Source of the DNA: a virus | Taxonomy: Duplodnaviria > Heunggongvirae > Uroviricota > Caudoviricetes | DNA length: 32,125 bases | Strand: one strand, 5' to 3' | IMG/VR virus record: IMGVR_UViG_2541047945_000009 | Span: 1 to 32,125 of that record | Shown: piece after piece, positions 1,553-18,833 of the stretch | How positions within the stretch are numbered: position 1 is the stretch's first letter | Layout: each line of letters opens with the position of its first letter | The notes under the pieces: model-generated | Database searches by the model: none | The model's input: the letters and a program-made list of their open reading frames with translations, nothing else | Told to the model about the DNA's origin: nothing | Position numbers and translations under genes: made by a program

Positions 1553-1741
1553 TCACGAGGACTGAAGTTTCTCGCAATTAAAATTTATCAGTTTTACTTT
1601 CTGCTCTCTGGAAACGCCTGCTTCTTTTTTACCTGAGAGCATTTTTTCGCATTCTGATTTCGTTAGTTTAGATTTTGAATATCTTGTCCAGTTAGTAGGA
1701 GTGCCACCTTCCTTTTCAATAGTGGCGGTAATTTTATACAT
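1553..1741 (-). CDS. ydaC: Small Rac early protein YdaC-like
   Basis: 62 aa from internal Met MYKITATIEKEGG, preceded by GGAGGTG Shine-Dalgarno; the longer track ORF would overlap ralR extensively. Start choice is inference. Confidence 0.5.
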   Translation of the reverse strand: MYKITATIEKEGGTPTNWTRYSKSKLTKSECEKMLSGKKEAGVSREQKVKLINFNCEKLQSS

Positions 1742-8994: not shown

Positions 8995-9783
8995 ATGGCT
9001 TCAAACTGGATAAAGCTCGAAGTTATTACGCCGGATAAGCCGGAAATATTCAGGCTTGCTGAGATTCTGAATATTGATCCAGATGCCGCATTAGGGAAAG
9101 TCATTCGCTTCTGGGCATGGGCGGATCAACAAATGATAGACGGTAACGCAGAGTGTAACGCTCGCGGCGTTACAAAAAGTGCAATAGATCGCATCACTTT
9201 TATGGCTGGTTTTGCTGATGCGTTAATTCAGGTTGGATGGCTGGTCGAAACTAATGGTGTGTTGTCGCTTCCTAACTTTGAGCGCCATAACGGGAAAAGC
9301 TCTAAAAAACGGGCGGTTACAAACGAGAGAGTAACAAAAATACGAGAACTGAAACGAAAAGGTAACGCTGCCAGCGTTACAAAAACGGATCAAAAAGCGT
9401 TACCAGAGGAAGAGAAAGAGGAAGATATAAATACTTATCTCCCCCTAAATCCCCCTCGCCAAAAACGAGCGTCTAAAAAATTCGAACCGGAGGCTATCGA
9501 GCTGCCTGACTGGTTGCCGGAAACACTCTGGCATGAGTGGGTTCAGTTCAGGCAGGCATTGCGAAAACCGATTCGAACGGAGCAGGGCGCTAACGGGGCG
9601 ATACGGGAGCTGGAAAAATTCCGCCAGCAGGGTTTTTCACCTGAGCAGGTGATTCGACACAGCATCGCCAATGAATACCAGGGCTTGTTCGCGCCAAAAG
9701 GTGTTCGACCTGAGACGTTACTCCGACAGGTTAACACCGTCTCGTTACCGGATAGTGCGATCCCGCCAGGCTTCAGGGGGTAA
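8995..9783 (+). CDS. ydaU: Replication protein YdaU-like (O-like initiator candidate)
   Basis: 262-aa ORF immediately upstream of a DnaC-like loader; matches Rac YdaU from memory. Confidence 0.75.
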   Translation: MASNWIKLEVITPDKPEIFRLAEILNIDPDAALGKVIRFWAWADQQMIDGNAECNARGVTKSAIDRITFMAGFADALIQVGWLVETNGVLSLPNFERHNGKSSKKRAVTNERVTKIRELKRKGNAASVTKTDQKALPEEEKEEDINTYLPLNPPRQKRASKKFEPEAIELPDWLPETLWHEWVQFRQALRKPIRTEQGANGAIRELEKFRQQGFSPEQVIRHSIANEYQGLFAPKGVRPETLLRQVNTVSLPDSAIPPGFRG

Positions 9784-11335: not shown

Positions 11336-11665
11336 ATGGCAAAAGTATTTACACCAGAAGAGCGGGAAAAAATTAAAGGGCAGGTTGTTGAACTTGTACG
11401 TCTGAGCGGTCGCGAGACGTTACGGGCTCTGGAGGCTAAAACCGGTGCATCAAGGTATTACATAAGCACTCTTGCCAGAGAACTGGTCGCCAGTGGTGAT
11501 GTTTACAATTCTGGCTACGGATTATTCCCGTTTGAGCAGGCGCGTAAAGACTGGCAAAACGCCCGCAAAAAACTATCAAGGGCAAAGATGAAGAAACCGG
11601 TTGTGGTAGATCCAAACCTAATCTGGTCATTACCTGATGGAGAAATCCGTCGCCTTAGTCTTTGA
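11336..11665 (+). CDS. Hypothetical protein, HTH-like
   Basis: ORF from ATG MAKVFTPEEREK… with GGAGG Shine-Dalgarno; …RETLRALEAKTGASRYYISTLAREL… looks like a helix-turn-helix. Track ORF begins at 11321 with a non-ATG codon. Confidence 0.45.
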   Translation: MAKVFTPEEREKIKGQVVELVRLSGRETLRALEAKTGASRYYISTLARELVASGDVYNSGYGLFPFEQARKDWQNARKKLSRAKMKKPVVVDPNLIWSLPDGEIRRLSL

Positions 11666-11700
11666 TACTATGTTTATAATGTTGAAAAAGAGTCTAATAG

Positions 11701-11730
11701 TTGACATTGTATGAAATATGATTGTTATAT
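11701..11730 (+). promoter_or_regulatory. Candidate sigma70 promoter for the NTPase gene
   Basis: Perfect TTGACA at 11701-11706, about 18-bp spacer, TTATAT; roughly 35 bp upstream of the ATG at 11767. Confidence 0.4.
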
Positions 11731-11766
11731 AAAATGATTTTTTTGGAGACTGTTTAAGGTAAACAA

Positions 11767-14025
11767 ATGAAACCAGAATACTTAAGGAAAATAGAATCAT
11801 TGCAACGTGAGGTTGATGATTTCCATCCAGTGCTAAGAGCGCTTCTACCACGTTTGCCGACTGTTACACATGTTGAATATAAGCAAGGACCATCAGAAAA
11901 AGGTGCTGATTTTGTCATAATTAAACGAGATGAGGCATTAGATGAGGAAATATATATTGGGGTTATTTGTAAGGTTGGAAAGATAATTCAGTCAAATAGT
12001 GAGGTCGAACGACAAATAGAAGAGTGTCAATTATACCCACGCTTTATTTCTTCTGGCTCTAAGAACATACATTTGAATGAAATTTGGGTTGTTACTAATT
12101 CATCAATCTCAAATAATGCTCAAGAAAAAATCTACTTAAAATTCAAATCTACAAATATAAAGTTTATAGAAGGTGAGAAAATATGTTCTTTAATCAGTAA
12201 ATATTACCCAGAGTTTTGGGATTTCGAATCCATTAATTATGAGCAATACTTAACAGATACATTGCAAACCATAAGTGATACTCCTGAAAGTTCTTTTTTT
12301 GGTAGTGTTGGCATAAATAACCTTATTGATAGATATGTAAGCAAGGAAGATCATAAAAAACGCAGGCACAGGCCGTTAAAACTGTATAGTGTTGTGAGAG
12401 CCGAGAGATTTATTTTTTTAGAGGGAACTGTTGGCTCCGGGAAAAGTACTTTGCTGAAACAGCTAATTAAAAAAATAAAAGAAGAATATTCTTACGAAAA
12501 AGACTACATCCTTCCAGTATTTTGCCAATACAAGGATGTTCTAGAAAAAAAACTCAATATTGAAAATATAATACAAAGTGTATTAAGTAAGTACAAAATA
12601 CAACATGATGGGAATATTTTATTAATTGTTGATTCGGTGGATGAAGTAAAGGAATCACTTGAGGAAAGGCAAAACAACTTCAGGGACATTGTAGAGAAAG
12701 TATCCAGGAGTGATAAAGTTCGATTACTAGTTGCTTCAAGAATTATGGACTCTCTTCAGGACTATGAAGTTATCGATCAGATGTTTGCAAGATACTCGAT
12801 AATACCACTTAGCACAGGTCAAATAATCGACTTTGTAGATAAAATCTGCAATGACATTAAAATAACAAACAAGCTTAAGAATGGTATAGAAAAAACACCA
12901 CTATTTAAATTCATTCCCAGGACTCCAGTGAGTGCTATTCTTCTAGCAAGAATACTCTCTGATGAGATTAAAGAATTACCATCTACAATGACAGAACTAT
13001 ACTCAAAATACAGTGAGATAGTATTGGGACGATGGGATACATCTAAGGGATTATTATCGCAAACAGAATATGATGTAATAAGTAATATATTAGTAGAAAT
13101 TGCGATGTTTATGATGGATAACTCTCTAAACTGCATATCAATTTCTGAAGTGCAGGACATGTTTTTAAATTATTTGGCCAAAAGAAACTTGAATGTTGAT
13201 GAGGACAAACTTTTCAAAAGACTAATTTATCGCAGTGAAGTAACAACAGTTAATGTTAGAACTAATACGTTCTCATTTCTACACAGATCATTCATGGAGT
13301 ATTTTTACGCTGAAGGACTTAGGAAGCGTGGCTTAATAGACATAAATGATAATATTTATGATATTTATTGGGCAAATAGTTATTTCTTCTATTTTGGTTT
13401 ATTAAGAGACAATGAATATCTTATTGATAAAATTAATGAACTTAAACCTAGTAACGATAAAACAAGATTTTTAAGGTTATTTTATAACGGTTCTTTTTAT
13501 TTGGCTTCATATCTAACTCCGTATAAAAAAATAGCAAGGGGAGTCCTTTTATCATATATAGATGCAGGTAAATTATATGTTGATATTCTCCATGGAAATA
13601 CCGACATCCCGCTGAAGGAGTTTTCACCAGTAGCTCTTCTTTGTATTTTTACAAAGTGTTTAAGTAACAATTACGCATATGATTTTTTCAAATCTGCCTT
13701 GGAAGACTTGTCAGTTCAAATTGAACAATATGAGGAAATTGGGGAACATATTGATTATGCACGTTTCTTCATAGCATCAACACTGAATGAGCTCGGGGAT
13801 AAATCCGCATTTGATAGCTTAGTGGAAAAAAATAAATTAGGTGTTTTGATTAATTTAGGGATAACTCACGTTACAGACGACTCAGGGCTACTAAGTACTA
13901 CGGTTGATAAGTACCTGAAAAAATTCAATAAAAAAGTACGAAGTAACCATGATATGTCTAATTATATATCTAAGTTATATGAGGAATCTACTGGTTCCTT
14001 ACGTACAAACCTACAAATTCAATAA
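11767..14025 (+). CDS. NACHT/STAND-like P-loop NTPase with N-terminal Mrr-like (PD-(D/E)xK-like) domain; candidate antiphage protein
   Basis: 752-aa ORF. Walker A GTVGSGKST (aa 220-228, nt 12424-12450); Walker B LLIVDSVDE (aa 285-293) followed by RLLVASR, the hhhhD[GAS]xDE + sensor pattern typical of NACHT. N-terminus …GADFVIIKRDEALDEEIYIGVICK… resembles an Mrr-type nuclease core. Strongly AT-rich compared with flanking genes. Confidence 0.8.
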   Translation: MKPEYLRKIESLQREVDDFHPVLRALLPRLPTVTHVEYKQGPSEKGADFVIIKRDEALDEEIYIGVICKVGKIIQSNSEVERQIEECQLYPRFISSGSKNIHLNEIWVVTNSSISNNAQEKIYLKFKSTNIKFIEGEKICSLISKYYPEFWDFESINYEQYLTDTLQTISDTPESSFFGSVGINNLIDRYVSKEDHKKRRHRPLKLYSVVRAERFIFLEGTVGSGKSTLLKQLIKKIKEEYSYEKDYILPVFCQYKDVLEKKLNIENIIQSVLSKYKIQHDGNILLIVDSVDEVKESLEERQNNFRDIVEKVSRSDKVRLLVASRIMDSLQDYEVIDQMFARYSIIPLSTGQIIDFVDKICNDIKITNKLKNGIEKTPLFKFIPRTPVSAILLARILSDEIKELPSTMTELYSKYSEIVLGRWDTSKGLLSQTEYDVISNILVEIAMFMMDNSLNCISISEVQDMFLNYLAKRNLNVDEDKLFKRLIYRSEVTTVNVRTNTFSFLHRSFMEYFYAEGLRKRGLIDINDNIYDIYWANSYFFYFGLLRDNEYLIDKINELKPSNDKTRFLRLFYNGSFYLASYLTPYKKIARGVLLSYIDAGKLYVDILHGNTDIPLKEFSPVALLCIFTKCLSNNYAYDFFKSALEDLSVQIEQYEEIGEHIDYARFFIASTLNELGDKSAFDSLVEKNKLGVLINLGITHVTDDSGLLSTTVDKYLKKFNKKVRSNHDMSNYISKLYEESTGSLRTNLQIQ

Positions 14026-14037
14026 TAAATAGATTGT

Positions 14038-14070
14038 CACATTGAAGGTAACGTATCGACCTTCAATGTG
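14038..14070 (+). terminator. Hairpin just downstream of the NTPase gene (possible terminator)
   Basis: Perfect 11-bp inverted repeat CACATTGAAGG / CCTTCAATGTG with 11-nt loop, followed by moderately U-rich ATTATTATCCTCTT. Confidence 0.3.
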
Positions 14071-14687
14071 ATTATTATCCTCTTAATAATATAGCCTAGG
14101 CTACTTTCGACTTTCTGAGGCACAGAGATTGCAGAATGTATCAATCATAGTGAAGCTATCGTAAATGTCCGCACGTTTCTACAGATAGTCAGATTTGAGT
14201 GAACTGCCTCCGCAAAATGCTGGTTGGGGCCTGACTTAATACATCTGAAGAAGTGTTGGTTATGTTTGGCTGTTATGAATCAGATAATTGATATGTTGAT
14301 TAGAGGAGAAGATAGAATCAACATGGTTGTTTTTCGTATAACTATTTGTTTTACTTTTAGTTTATGCATTCTGTGTGTTAGGAGTAAGTTATTAAAGTTT
14401 AACCAAAAAATCTTGATGTCGTCCACATAGATTACTGTTACTGAACCTTATTGTGTGCATTAGTTGTGTTTTGAAATTTCAATTTAATTATTTATGATGT
14501 GTATTTTTAACGATAAATGTTTTCTGGGTAAAAGACAGTGGGGGATGAGATAGGCAATATATCATTAATCTTGATTATCTCCAGGATGCCTTTACTGTTC
14601 ATATAAATAAATCACATGCGCATCAAGTAATGTAAAGGCATCCTTTTAGTTATATCTTATTAAATGTTAATGCTTTGAGTGGAAAAC

Positions 14688-14840
14688 ATGATTCCAGCAA
14701 TTATCATATGGCTACTTTATAAAAATAATGCCCATATAAAACAACAAGTGAAAAGGATTACGGATAAAAAAGGAGCGAGATGTGCAAAGTTGTTATTTTC
14801 CATGTTTAACCACCTTAAACAATTGATGATGACGGGATGA
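14688..14840 (+). CDS. Small ORF (50 aa), possibly a small membrane protein
   Basis: MIPAIIIWLLYKNNAHIKQQVKRITDKKGARCAKLLFSMFNHLKQLMMTG; weak Shine-Dalgarno; preceded by a 12-bp inverted repeat (14584-14642) and followed by a hairpin (14865-14899). Could be non-coding. Confidence 0.2.
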   Translation: MIPAIIIWLLYKNNAHIKQQVKRITDKKGARCAKLLFSMFNHLKQLMMTG

Positions 14841-15055
14841 TTGCATCTGCAATGCTTTTATTGAAATGTTATGATAAAAAAGAACTTTTTCATAACATTA
14901 AAATGCAATTTATCTAATCGTTTTTAATAATAAGTGTGGTATTTCTATCCTTGTACCAGCTATTTAGACTGGCCCCCTGAATCACCAGACAACCAATATC
15001 ACTTATTTAAGTGATAGTCTTAATACTAGTTTTTAGGCTAGTCATTGGAGAGCAG

Positions 15056-15421
15056 ATGATTGATGTCTTAGGACCGGAGAAACGCAGACGGCGTACCACA
15101 CAGGAAAAGATCGCAATTGTTCAGCAGAGCTTTGAACCAGGGATGACGGTCTCCCTCGTTGCCCGGCAACATGGTGTAGCAGCCAGCCAGTTATTTCTCT
15201 GGCGTAAGCAATACCAGGAAGGAAGTCTTACTGCTGTCGCCGCCGGAGAACAGGTTGTTCCTGCCTCTGAACTTGCTGCCGCCATGAAGCAGATTAAAGA
15301 ACTCCAGCGCCTGCTCGGCAAGAAAACGATGGAAAATGAACTCCTCAAAGAAGCCGTTGAATATGGACGGGCAAAAAAGTGGATAGCGCACGCGCCCTTA
15401 TTGCCCGGGGATGGGGAGTAA
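15056..15421 (+). CDS. insC: IS2 OrfA (InsC), HTH transposase subunit
   Basis: 121 aa from [24 protein letters not shown]…, matching IS2 InsC from memory. Confidence 0.9.
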
Positions 15422-16284
15422 GCTTAGTCAGCCGTTGTCTCCGGGTGTCGCGTGCGCAGTTGCACGTCATTCTCAGACGAACCGATGACTGGATGGATGG
15501 CCGCCGCAGTCGTCACACTGATGATACGGATGTGCTTCTCCGTATACACCATGTTATCGGAGAGCTGCCCACGTATGGTTATCGTCGGGTATGGGCGCTG
15601 CTTCGCAGACAGGCAGAACTTGATGGTATGCCTGCGATCAATGCCAAACGTGTTTACCGGATCATGCGCCAGAATGCGCTGTTGCTTGAGCGAAAACCTG
15701 CTGTACCGCCATCGAAACGGGCACATACAGGCAGAGTGGCTGTGAAAGAAAGTAATCAGCGATGGTGCTCTGACGGGTTCGAGTTCCGCTGTGATAACGG
15801 AGAAAAACTGCGAGTCACGTTCGCGCTGGACTGCTGTGACCGTGAGGCACTGCACTGGGCGGTCACTACGGGCGGCTTCAACAGTGAAACAGTACAGGAC
15901 GTCATGCTGGGAGCGGTGGAACGCCGCTTCGGCAACGAGCTTCCGGCGTCTCCAGTAGAGTGGCTGACGGATAATGGTTCATGCTACCGGGCTAATGAAA
16001 CACGGCAGTTTGCCCGGATGTTGGGGCTTGAACCGAAGAGCACGGCGGTGCGGAGTCCGGAGAGTAACGGCATAGCAGAGAGCTTCGTGAAAACGATAAA
16101 GCGTGACTACATCAGTGTCATGCCCAAACCAGACGGGTTAACGGCAGCAAAGAACCTTGCAGAGGCGTTCGAGCATTATAACGAATGGCATCCGCATAGT
16201 GCACTGGGTTATCGCTCGCCACGGGAATATCTACGGCAGCAAGCCAGTAATGGGTTAAGTGATAACAGGTGTCTGGAAATATAG
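15379..16284 (+). CDS. insD: IS2 OrfB (InsD), DDE transposase catalytic subunit
   Basis: 301-aa ORF overlapping insC in the -1 frame; matches IS2 InsD from memory. Confidence 0.9.
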
Positions 16285-16419
16285 GGGCAAATCCACTATT
16301 TGATATGTAGTGTTTGTTCATGCTATGTGGAGCTTTACACCATAGCCAGTTTATTTATACTTTATTCGTCAGCCTGAACAACTGGCATCTGCTGCACTGC
16401 GCCATAGAGAGATTGAGAA

Positions 16420-17019
16420 ATGGCGCATATACAACTAGTCAAACAAACCTCTTCCGGATTACTTCTCCCGGCGACGCCGGAGAGTTGCGATTTTCTGCAT
16501 CAAATCAAAATAGGTGAGTGGATACACGCAGACTTTAAGCGTGTGCGTAACTACGCATTCCACAAGCGTTTTTTCAAACTCCTGCAACTGGGATTCGATT
16601 ACTGGACTCCGGTCGGTGGGGCGATCACGCCTCGCGAACGAGAACTGCTGTCTGGTTTCGTTGATTACCTGTGCGAATCAGTTGGTCGGGAACACACGCC
16701 AGCCCTGAGTGATGCCGCAGAGCAATACCTTAACACCGTTGCGACTCGTAGAACCCGGGATACGGCGTTGCTAAAGTCGTTTGAGGCTTTCCGCGAGTGG
16801 GTAACCATTCAGGCCGGATTTTACACCGAGCATATTTATCCGGACGGTAGCCGTGGGCGTCGGGCAAAATCCATCGCTTTTGCGAATATGGACGAAACCG
16901 AGTTTCAGCAGGTTTATAAATCTGTACTGAATGTGCTGTGGAACTGGATTCTGTTCCGTAAATTCTCCTCTCAGGAGGAAGTTGAAAATGTGGCCGCACA
17001 ACTACTGGAGTTTGCGTAA
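16420..17019 (+). CDS. nin-region protein (DUF1367-like, uncertain)
   Basis: 199-aa ORF MAHIQLVKQTSSG… at the head of a coupled three-gene operon; family name recalled from memory and not verified. Confidence 0.6.
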   Translation: MAHIQLVKQTSSGLLLPATPESCDFLHQIKIGEWIHADFKRVRNYAFHKRFFKLLQLGFDYWTPVGGAITPRERELLSGFVDYLCESVGREHTPALSDAAEQYLNTVATRRTRDTALLKSFEAFREWVTIQAGFYTEHIYPDGSRGRRAKSIAFANMDETEFQQVYKSVLNVLWNWILFRKFSSQEEVENVAAQLLEFA

Positions 17020-17309
17020 TGGTGAATTTACGTAAAGCGGCTAAAGGCCAGATGTGCCAGATCAGAATCCCTGGCTACTGCAATCACAATCCCGAAACCT
17101 CTGTGCTGGCGCATTACAGGCTGGCGGGGACGTGCGGAACAGCGACAAAACCACACGATATGCAGGCGGCGATAGCCTGTAGCTCATGCCACGATCTAAT
17201 CGACGGGCGGGTAAAAACCAGCGATTACACCAAAGAAGAATTGCGCCTGATGCATGCTGAAGGGGTTTTTCGCACACAAGAAATCTGGAGAAAGAAAGGT
17301 CATTTATGA
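17019..17309 (+). CDS. YbcO-like protein (DUF1364, Cys-rich)
   Basis: 96 aa MVNLRKAAKGQMCQIRIPGYCNHNPETSVLAHYRL…CSSCHDLIDGR resembling DLP12 YbcO from memory; start overlaps the upstream stop (TAATG). Confidence 0.65.
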   Translation: MVNLRKAAKGQMCQIRIPGYCNHNPETSVLAHYRLAGTCGTATKPHDMQAAIACSSCHDLIDGRVKTSDYTKEELRLMHAEGVFRTQEIWRKKGHL

Positions 17310-17848
17310 TTTACCCAACGAATACAGGAAAAAGCGGAGAACACCTTCGCCTCACCACGCTGGAAAGTGTCTGGATTCAGGGAAAACTACGTATGTGGGG
17401 GCGCTGGTCGTATATTGGCGGTGGCAGGTCAGGGAATATGTTCAATCAGTTGTTGGCATCCAAAAAACTGACGAAAACAGCCATTAATGAAGCCCTGCGC
17501 AGAATGAAAAAAGCGGGAATAGAGAAAGCTGAGCTGGAAGCGTTTTTGCGAGAGATGATCAACGGCAAGCAAAAGAGCTGGCTGGCGCATTGTACTGATG
17601 CAGAGGCGTTATGTATTGATCGAGTCATAAGTGAGGTGCTGGCAGAGCATCCAGGATTGATTTGCATTCTCCGGCAACGCTATGAAGGGCGGGGGATGAC
17701 TAAGCGCAAAATGGCTGAATTGCTAAATGATGCACACCCAGAGTGGTGTTTTAGCACATGCGAAAAACGGATTGCTAATTGGTTAGCTGTTGCTGAGTAT
17801 GCCCTATATATTCCCATGCGTGAATCATTTGCTGAGAAAATGGCTTGA
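17306..17848 (+). CDS. Putative late-gene antiterminator Q-like protein
   Basis: 180-aa ORF, ATGA-coupled to the upstream gene, last gene before an intrinsic terminator and the lysis region. Assignment rests mainly on position. Confidence 0.5.
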   Translation: MIYPTNTGKSGEHLRLTTLESVWIQGKLRMWGRWSYIGGGRSGNMFNQLLASKKLTKTAINEALRRMKKAGIEKAELEAFLREMINGKQKSWLAHCTDAEALCIDRVISEVLAEHPGLICILRQRYEGRGMTKRKMAELLNDAHPEWCFSTCEKRIANWLAVAEYALYIPMRESFAEKMA

Positions 17849-17938
17849 TTTCTTACGTATAAACTGCTTCAATTTTGCTATGCTTCGCAAAGCTGTATCG
17901 CGAGGCGGATTGCAGACATGGACATCGTAAAAAAACCG

Positions 17939-17965
17939 CTTAATGCGGTTTTTTTACGTCAGGAA
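17939..17965 (+). terminator. Intrinsic terminator downstream of the Q-like gene (tR'-like candidate)
   Basis: AAAAAAACCGC-TTAAT-GCGGTTTTTTT: perfect stem flanked by A-run and T-run, so potentially bidirectional. Confidence 0.5.
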
Positions 17966-18275
17966 AGCAGGGGAGAATGCTGCTAGTTGGGCAACTGGTC
18001 TTTCTGCTCCAAATTATAACAGAGACCAGTTATAGTTTCGGTGCTGTGTTTTTTTTACAATATTGTGATAACACATTGCTGGCGGGAGTTTTGATATTTC
18101 TTGGCAGGGGCTGATGATGCGTTATCCTGATGTCGTCAACTCATATAAAATGAGATGAGAGATCATTGCAGGGTGGTTTGTAATTCGCTGTTTAGCGGGA
18201 CAATATGTTGTCTGATACAAGACACCCGACGCCTCAGATTACTATAATAAAGACGAAGCATCCTTTGTATTGACC

Positions 18276-18302
18276 AACCGCCTGTTTAGGCGGTTCTTTT
18301 TG
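18276..18302 (+). terminator. Intrinsic terminator in the Q-to-lysis interval
   Basis: AACCGCCT-GTTT-AGGCGGTT followed by CTTTTT; a TATAAT hexamer lies about 30 bp upstream (18243-18248). Confidence 0.4.
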
Positions 18303-18833
18303 GGCTGGTTTATTGTATGCCAAATGATTATTAAAAAGGTTGTGTTAATAACAAAACCCGAAATAATATGCCTGCATATTTTTATCTTGCTTATATTCTG
18401 CATATTGTGCATAGCAGGCTCATCCCTGCAATCAAAACTGTATGATGAGTATTTTTTGTTTTCCTTTTTTCCAGTCATCTGATGATGACCTGCTTCTTTT
18501 TAATCCGGATCGACATCAGTTTTTTAAGATAATTCCTGCGAGTTATATGCATAAATACCACAAACTCCGCATTTTATGTGGTTGGGAGTTGCCGGGCGCG
18601 CAGTGAGTTTGCTAAGAAAACTCCTGCATGGTGAATCCCCCTGTGCGGTGGGGTGATACCATTAACCTTTTCTGTCGCCGACAGGTATCACGAACATTTT
18701 GTTCACCGGGAGGCACCCGGCACCATGCACTTCAATAGATTCTCTCCACATTATGGATATTCTTTCAGAATATCCCACGCAGACTTTGTGTAAATGTTAA
18801 CAAATGTGCGTTTTATTTGATCTGATTCGCTGT

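Follow-up and report, generated by a model that had tools for sequence, protein, structure and literature searches.

An intact IS2 copy and its exact empty site upstream of the irsA-ybcO-Q operon of a Rac-type prophage

Introduction

When an insertion sequence (IS) settles just upstream of the gene for a lambdoid Q-like antiterminator, does it silence that gene, drive it or leave it as it was? This question is raised by the stretch of DNA analysed here (the window: all 32,125 nucleotides of IMG/VR virus record IMGVR_UViG_2541047945_000009, Caudoviricetes), in which an IS2 element of the IS3 family lies between an AT-rich island, carrying a gene for a nucleoside triphosphatase (NTPase), and an irsA-ybcO-Q operon. 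A first-pass annotation of the window had described the element as intact, its arrival as a simple transposition and its host as Rac-like, and had proposed that Q, and with it lysis and late gene expression, may be blocked or else driven from an outward or hybrid IS2 promoter. The structural part of that description holds to the base, the hybrid promoter does not, and the insertion would most likely be near-neutral for the prophage.

Results

The element at 14965-16295 is exactly 1331 bp long by direct reading and by script, begins with TAGACTGGCCCCCTGAATC and ends with GGGGCAAATCCA, and aligns to IS2A of K-12 MG1655 (NC_000913.3, 381260-382590) with 32 mismatches and no gaps (97.6% identity). 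If an IS2 isoform is defined, as in ISfinder practice, by a length of about 1331 bp and a nucleotide identity of 95% or more to reference IS2, the element qualifies on both counts. IS2 has been described with imperfect terminal repeats of 42 and 41 bp and an A6G frameshift window (PMC3299598). The ends of the window element likewise form imperfect inverted repeats of 42 and 41 bp, whose alignment needs a single 1-nt gap, its orfA (frame 2) and orfB (frame 1) overlap and share an A6G window, and the Prokaryotic Genome Annotation Pipeline (PGAP) annotates a programmed frameshift at the identical locus.

The transposase is likewise complete. OrfA has no residue that differs from its K-12 IS2A counterpart and OrfB has 8; Pfam finds HTH_Tnp_1 in OrfA (1.8e-19) and rve in OrfB (4.8e-19, profile positions 3-102 of 102). 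Published work numbers the catalytic residues of IS2 transposase D306 and E342 and places an outward -35 in the right end of the element (PMC3219604); D306 and E342 of the modelled 409-aa OrfAB fusion coincide with those positions. Judged by its WCSDGF motif, D240 is probably the first catalytic aspartate, which gives a helix-turn-helix domain and a full-length rve domain with an intact aspartate-aspartate-glutamate (DDE) triad (D240, D306, E342), as in IS2. By every feature that defines the element in sequence, 14965-16295 is a member of IS2. We put at about 0.9 the probability that it is an intact and transposition-competent copy of a common IS2 isoform, jointly with the explanation of its presence that is favoured below.

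The isoform is indeed common, with copies at 99% identity or more in 686 records. Strain MMC-J-0105, one of the Escherichia coli genomes that carry the insertion, holds a 100% identical copy at a second locus, and IS2 occupies 15-17 places in each carrier genome, which suggests that this copy is recent and active. As a separate observation, an AA-to-TT change at positions 42-43 of the left terminal inverted repeat (IRL; window 14965-15012) converts CACTTAAATAAGTG to its own reverse complement, CACTTATTTAAGTG. Transposase protects residues 39-48 of IRL, where the OrfA repressor site is said to lie (PMC3299598), and the change, which falls inside this stretch, might alter IS2 autoregulation.

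How the element arrived can be read from its flanks. The repeats at 14960-14964 and 16296-16300 are both CTATT, of which the empty site has one copy: this is the 5-bp target-site duplication of IS2, and a chance match of two 5-bp flanks at this base composition would, by our estimate, occur roughly once in 500. The comparison with IS2-free Rac-like prophages that the first-pass annotation had called for was made with a query of 500 bp of left flank, ending in one CTATT, joined to 500 bp of right flank, which was searched against 5426 complete E. coli genomes. In E. coli FLI21 (NZ_CP139808.1) the whole 1000-bp join matches without interruption at 100% identity, and 456 genomes contain it in one piece with a coverage of at least 80%. 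The empty site was also found in two deposited Rac-like phage genomes, and phage vB_EcoS-666R9 (ON470614.1) has the uninterrupted junction with a single CTATT. Because the reconstructed empty site is both exact and contiguous, the event was a simple transposition in which 5 bp were duplicated and no later rearrangement followed, as had been proposed from the repeats. Directly left of the empty site in FLI21 lies the C-terminal part of the NACHT gene (99.8% identity), so the AT-rich island predates the arrival of IS2.

A further reading would put the repeats or the element itself down to misassembly or to chance similarity. It has a negligible probability and was rejected: three complete genomes, assembled independently of one another, share the same junctions, the match to the empty site is exact, the element aligns with IS2 along its full length, and nothing was found in favour. 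IS2 would instead have entered by its usual copy-out/paste-in route, from a figure-of-eight intermediate through a minicircle to insertion. The Rac-type prophage at ttcA would have offered it an AT-rich target between genes, where CTATT was duplicated and nothing was rearranged afterwards.

Table 1. Features of the IS2 insertion and its neighbourhood (window coordinates)
Feature	Coordinates	Strand	Basis and remarks
NACHT-domain STAND NTPase gene, 752 aa (NACHT + NCH1)	11767..14025	+	Pfam; AT-rich cargo island
Perfect 14-bp stem hairpin, terminator candidate	14036..14072	+	Directly after NACHT stop codon; z = -4.05
Long hairpin then UUUU, terminator candidate	14583..14644	+	Upstream of insertion site; z = -3.53
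Left target-site duplication copy, CTATT	14960..14964		Sequence reading; single copy in empty site
IS2 isoform, IS3 family	14965..16295	+	1331 bp; 97.6% to K-12 IS2A; 100% identical copies elsewhere in E. coli genomes
IRL, 42-bp left terminal inverted repeat, 5'-TA	14965..15006	+	Gapped alignment of both ends
orfA, 121 aa, HTH_Tnp_1	15056..15421	+	Protein identical to K-12 InsC
A-AAA-AAG slippery heptamer, programmed -1 frameshift	15373..15379	+	Within orfA zero frame
orfB, 301 aa, HTH_21 + rve + rve_3	15379..16284	+	-1 frame relative to orfA
IRR, 41-bp right terminal inverted repeat, CA-3'	16255..16295	+	Outward -35 motif TGGAAA at 16274-16279
Right target-site duplication copy, CTATT	16296..16300		Sequence reading
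Sigma-70 promoter-like site, TTTACA-16-TATACT, 10/12	16334..16361	+	Promoter scan; between IS2 and operon, outside IS2
DUF1367/irsA-like gene (PHROG NinB/Orf-like)	16420..17019	+	First operon gene; Pfam, PHROG
YbcO/DUF1364 (HNH-like) gene	17019..17309	+	Overlaps upstream gene by TAATG
DUF1133 Q-like antiterminator gene	17306..17848	+	ATGA overlap; Pfam, PHROG

Nothing recognizable was broken by the insertion. When open reading frames (ORFs) were called on the reconstructed empty site, the sole frame to span the junction was a 35-aa low-complexity ORF, and on this ground a disrupted gene was rejected. A disrupted SOS switch was considered as well, since in Gifsy prophages irsA comes third in a dinI-antirepressor-irsA operon under LexA control (PMC3121763, Lemire et al. 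2011); similarly, the antirepressor gene rem lies directly upstream of irsA in the Rac segment of E. coli 442/2 (MN652886). This candidate was also rejected: a search of the window found no LexA box near the insertion site, tblastn of the window with rem, hok and other genes from the corresponding interval of 442/2 returned no homologue, and there is no dinI homologue near the site. As no gene, LexA box or antirepressor was found interrupted, the insertion is intergenic. The sole LexA-box-like match in the window, TTCTGAATATTGATCCAGAT at 9065-9084 (CTG-N10-CAG, 13/20 to consensus), falls inside the ydaU-like replication gene and is probably due to chance.

The host element is Rac-like, as the first-pass annotation had it. 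RefSeq annotation of a near-identical locus (99.996% over window 1-24927) describes a Rac-type prophage integrated beside ttcA, with intR, xisR, ralR, recT, recE, racC, kilR, sieB, a RacR-type immunity region and ydaT/U/V/W-like replication genes. The RalA antitoxin small RNA (sRNA) of the RalR/RalA type I toxin-antitoxin pair is present at full length at window 1557-1735 (Rfam, 225 bits), and the ttcA site, the Rac modules and RalA together are those of a Rac-type lambdoid prophage. To the right of the Q-like gene lie TolA-like genes, an essD-rrrD-Rz lysis cassette and trkG. The genome of LC-1302-2020 gives the impression of a short cryptic remnant, which was rejected: the window itself encodes terminase, portal and P22-type capsid genes, and the prophage of MMC-J-0105 is near-complete.

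On the left of the insertion there is indeed an NTPase island, a NACHT protein gene in DNA of about 31% guanine plus cytosine (GC) that extends from about 11700 to the insertion point; the gene is preceded by a truncated DUF977 (lygF-like) gene, and IS2 sits 940 bp downstream of the NACHT gene. From its sequence, the product of 11767-14025 looks like a bacterial NACHT anti-phage defence protein. It has a weak N-terminal Mrr_cat-like match (E = 0.0065), the gene had no good match among the PADLOC v2 models, and in FLI21 it is cut by IS1.

The interval between DUF977/lygF and irsA is a hypervariable cargo slot of Rac-type prophages (window 11650-14964; related loci L003 5640-8004, L008 3966-6293 and L009 2627-6000). 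Its cargo is the NACHT gene in the window, where DUF977 is truncated, QueH and DUF1971 in strain CUVM3, hok/mok, small ORFs and the rem antirepressor gene in E. coli 442/2, and other genes in phage 666R9. Conservation among the window, CUVM3 and phage 666R9 covers roughly the final 700 bp ahead of irsA (window 14269-14964). Within them, 14440-14964 is an AT-rich non-coding spacer, about 95% conserved, that contains a promoter-like site at 14471-14498 (10/12), the long hairpin with its UUUU at 14583-14644 and a 10-bp AT hairpin at about 14865-14899. A 53-aa ORF at 14679-14840, with a hydrophobic N-terminus, was considered as a type I toxin or antirepressor and rejected; it had no Pfam or PHROG match, a 1-nt indel breaks its frame in two relatives, and it is probably not coding.

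On the right, the annotated operon at 16420-17848 is translationally coupled, its genes joined by a TAATG overlap at 17017-17021 and an ATGA overlap at 17306-17309, and it ends in a Q-like gene. The distance from IS2, annotated as about 125 bp, is 124 bp between the end of the element at 16295 and the ATG at 16420. The product of 17306-17848 matches Pfam DUF1133 with 356 bits and the PHROG entry 'anti-termination protein Q-like' at 2e-79; its match to Pfam Phage_antitermQ, at 26.1 bits, stands barely at the cutoff of 26. The promoter-like site between IS2 and the operon (16334-16361) is invariant in four related loci.

Beyond the Q-like gene, a terminator-like AAAAAACCGCTTAATGCGGTTTTTTT follows immediately (window 17931-17956). 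About 270 bp further on, at window 18219-18295, a promoter-like AAGACA-18-TATAAT is followed at once by a GC hairpin and a T-run, a candidate pR'/tR' pair for Q action. The sRNA STnc100 is matched at window 18596-18782 (Rfam, 86.6 bits), between the Q-like and TolA-like genes, and may belong to the leader of the late operon. An Rfam scan of the whole window had RalA and STnc100 as its sole matches, with nothing in or beside IS2.

The insertion is rare. It occurs in 3 of the 5426 complete E. coli genomes, namely LC-1302-2020, MMC-J-0105 and FDAARGOS_1249, all RefSeq genomes in which it is already annotated ('IS3 family transposase; programmed frameshift'). Since these carriers are at least 99.96% identical to the window over 23-28 kb, with a few single-nucleotide polymorphisms or other IS elements as their differences from it, the insertion is a marker of a single small E. 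coli lineage. A count of six carriers, based on 100% covered matches, was rejected: the IS2 of CUVM3, CPww7 and EC02 is another one, inserted at a distance of about 700 bp. Searches for the exact right junction returned 0 matches in GTDB representative genomes and JGI metagenomes.

Further decay of the prophage in this lineage, by deletions and additional IS insertions, appears to have followed the arrival of IS2. The prophage of MMC-J-0105, near-complete in other respects, contains no IS apart from IS2. Two copies of IS5 and a further IS3-family element have been added in FDAARGOS_1249, where the NACHT gene is also in two pieces, and LC-1302-2020 has lost the structural genes beside another IS3-family element. 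Independent IS-driven decay is also seen in sister and related strains (loci L001 26570-27783; L006 4162-5130 and 33626-38013; L002 13649-14346, 20437-21405 and 24650-25618). These events comprise IS5 in replication and tape-measure genes, an IS3-family element beside a deletion of all structural genes, an IS1 deletion from racC into the NACHT gene, and IS903B in the holin gene.

Discussion

What the insertion does to Q depends on how the operon is transcribed. The early rightward genes, the NACHT gene, IS2 and the Q operon all lie on the + strand, and the IS2 transposase genes point at the operon; early rightward transcription must thus cross IS2, as the first-pass annotation had noted. Judging from the sequence, the most likely outcome is that the insertion is near-neutral for the prophage. 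It would add 1.3 kb to early rightward read-through, with possible attenuation, and that read-through would already have had two terminator-like hairpins to pass (14036-14072 and 14583-14644) before it reached IS2. The conserved promoter-like element downstream would be left intact along with the whole operon, and no good hybrid promoter would be created.

Several points weigh against near-neutrality. The site at 16334-16361 is a consensus match, conserved among close relatives only (about 94-100% identity), and as such proves little. In the Rac segment of 442/2 the spacer upstream of irsA is 66 bp long and shows no promoter-like site by eye; this arrangement suggests that the operon normally depends on upstream transcription, in which case IS2 could matter more. 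IS2 insertions are, moreover, classically polar in at least one orientation, a property for which work by Yarulin and Gorlenko from 1985 is said to be the reference. Finally, a second, independent and co-oriented IS2 in the same spacer of another lineage could hint at selection rather than neutrality.

The polarity of IS2 bears most directly on the proposal that Q is blocked. If the Q operon needs early read-through, IS2 might stop it through Rho acting in a poorly translated orfB, which would silence Q, lysis and the late genes and leave the prophage locked in. The co-orientation of all the genes involved is consistent with such a block, as are the position of irsA behind rem in 442/2 and the further decay of the prophage in sister genomes after IS2 had inserted. 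However, the 10/12 promoter-like site lies between IS2 and irsA, and with two strong hairpins already ahead of the insertion site IS2 would not be the first barrier. Furthermore, the sense strand of IS2 is G-rich rather than C-rich (C/G 0.81; C-rich windows 1/49, versus 19/49 on the antisense strand), which by this crude proxy makes the element a poor-looking Rho substrate. Antiterminated lambdoid transcription also reportedly reads through IS2, a passage that Adhya, Gottesman and de Crombrugghe are said to have described in 1974. The location of irsA within an upstream LexA-controlled operon in Gifsy prophages (PMC3121763) again points towards dependence on upstream transcription, but overall we consider a polar block unlikely.

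Alternatively, IS2 may have switched the Q operon on: a hybrid promoter could have formed, transcription from PIRL, the transposase promoter, could run out of the element, or the proximal promoter could have been moved away from AT-rich, possibly H-NS-bound DNA. In favour of activation, the right terminal inverted repeat (IRR) faces the operon with its outward -35, fusion promoters of IS2 have been documented at ampC, acrEF and neo (PMC9330008), and the left flank is of about 31% GC. Yet a spacer of 17 bp is mandatory if the outward -35 is to form the junction promoter Pjunc (PMC3219604, PMC3299598), and at that distance TGGAAA (16274-16279) pairs here with TATTTG, a -10 of 3/6 that lacks the final T, for a total of 7/12. 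The best combination at the right junction reaches 8/12 with a non-functional 19-bp spacer, a promoter scan found no site across that junction, and a flanking -10 at about 17 bp, which would mark an IS-generated fusion promoter, is absent. A recent systematic study detected no promoter activity in the wild-type right end of IS2 (150 bp; PMC12095673), and PIRL is weak and repressed by OrfA (PMC3299598); the part given to H-NS is pure conjecture. The right-junction hybrid promoter suggested by the first-pass annotation was rejected on this evidence, and activation by any of these routes is very improbable.

The second IS2 deserves separate attention. In CUVM3 (NZ_CP116970.1), and also in CPww7 and EC02, another IS2 isoform, 96.4% identical to that of the window, lies in the same orientation about 700 bp upstream of the window site (L003 8005-9335, equivalent to window ~14262-14278), in Rac prophages with the different cargo of QueH and DUF1971. 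The direct repeat on either side of it, TATGTCAAGCTGTTATG, is 17 bp long and not the usual 5 bp. At least six genomes have the corresponding empty site, in which the 17-mer occurs once, at 100% identity over 800 bp, so the 17-bp duplication arose with this insertion; it is atypically long for an IS2 target duplication.

One conserved AT-rich spacer of about 0.8 kb upstream of irsA-ybcO-Q has therefore received two independent, co-oriented IS2 insertions. Recurrent selection for uncoupling or re-wiring the expression of Q and lysis from early transcription could produce such a pattern and, if true, would amount to a repeatable first step in prophage domestication. We regard this as improbable: IS2 favours curved, AT-rich targets (PMC3299598), and this preference is a simpler explanation of the two hits than selection. 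Near-neutrality remains the reading that we prefer for the window insertion.

Intergenic IS insertions are commonplace in prophage DNA, few bacterial insertion sequences have been studied as well as IS2, and the insertion in the window, already known from annotated genomes, is real but ordinary; it has little significance beyond bookkeeping. It can nevertheless be used as a clean lineage marker. Furthermore, the existence of an exact IS2-free counterpart provides a natural pair, MMC-J-0105 versus IS2-free Rac-like prophages or phages such as vB_EcoS-666R9, which could reveal how the poorly understood irsA-ybcO-Q operon of Rac- and Gifsy-type prophages is transcribed.

Among known systems, the element itself stands closest to IS2A of K-12, with which it shares the length of 1331 bp, OrfA, the A6G window, the DDE residues, the 42/41-bp repeats ending in TA and CA, and the 5-bp duplication. 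It differs from IS2A by the 32 substitutions, of which 8 alter OrfB residues and 3 fall in IRL (positions 20, 42 and 43). The prophage around it resembles the IS-riddled cryptic lambdoid prophages of K-12 (Rac, DLP12 and Qin) in the accumulation of IS elements and in the stepwise loss of structural genes in sister strains, and it shares with K-12 Rac both the attachment site at ttcA and the intR-xisR-ralR-recET-kilR-sieB module. However, the Rac prophage of the window is far more complete than that of K-12, keeping the irsA/ybcO/Q operon, the lysis cassette and head genes, and its closest complete relative additionally keeps tail genes.

As in the fusion promoters at ampC (Jaurin & Normark 1983), acrEF and neo, the right end of IS2 faces a downstream operon with its outward -35. 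The difference lies in the flank, which here offers no well-spaced -10, in the 124 bp that separate the element from the ATG, and in a separate promoter-like site downstream of the insertion; on sequence grounds, the window insertion falls outside the class of IS2 fusion promoters. The nearest parallel for the operon is the dinI-antirepressor-irsA arrangement of Gifsy, where, as here, ybcO and Q directly follow an irsA (DUF1367) homologue and the prophage has a repressor of the RacR/DicA type. Upstream of irsA, however, the window has no dinI, rem or LexA box and carries in their place the NACHT island, the AT-rich spacer and IS2.

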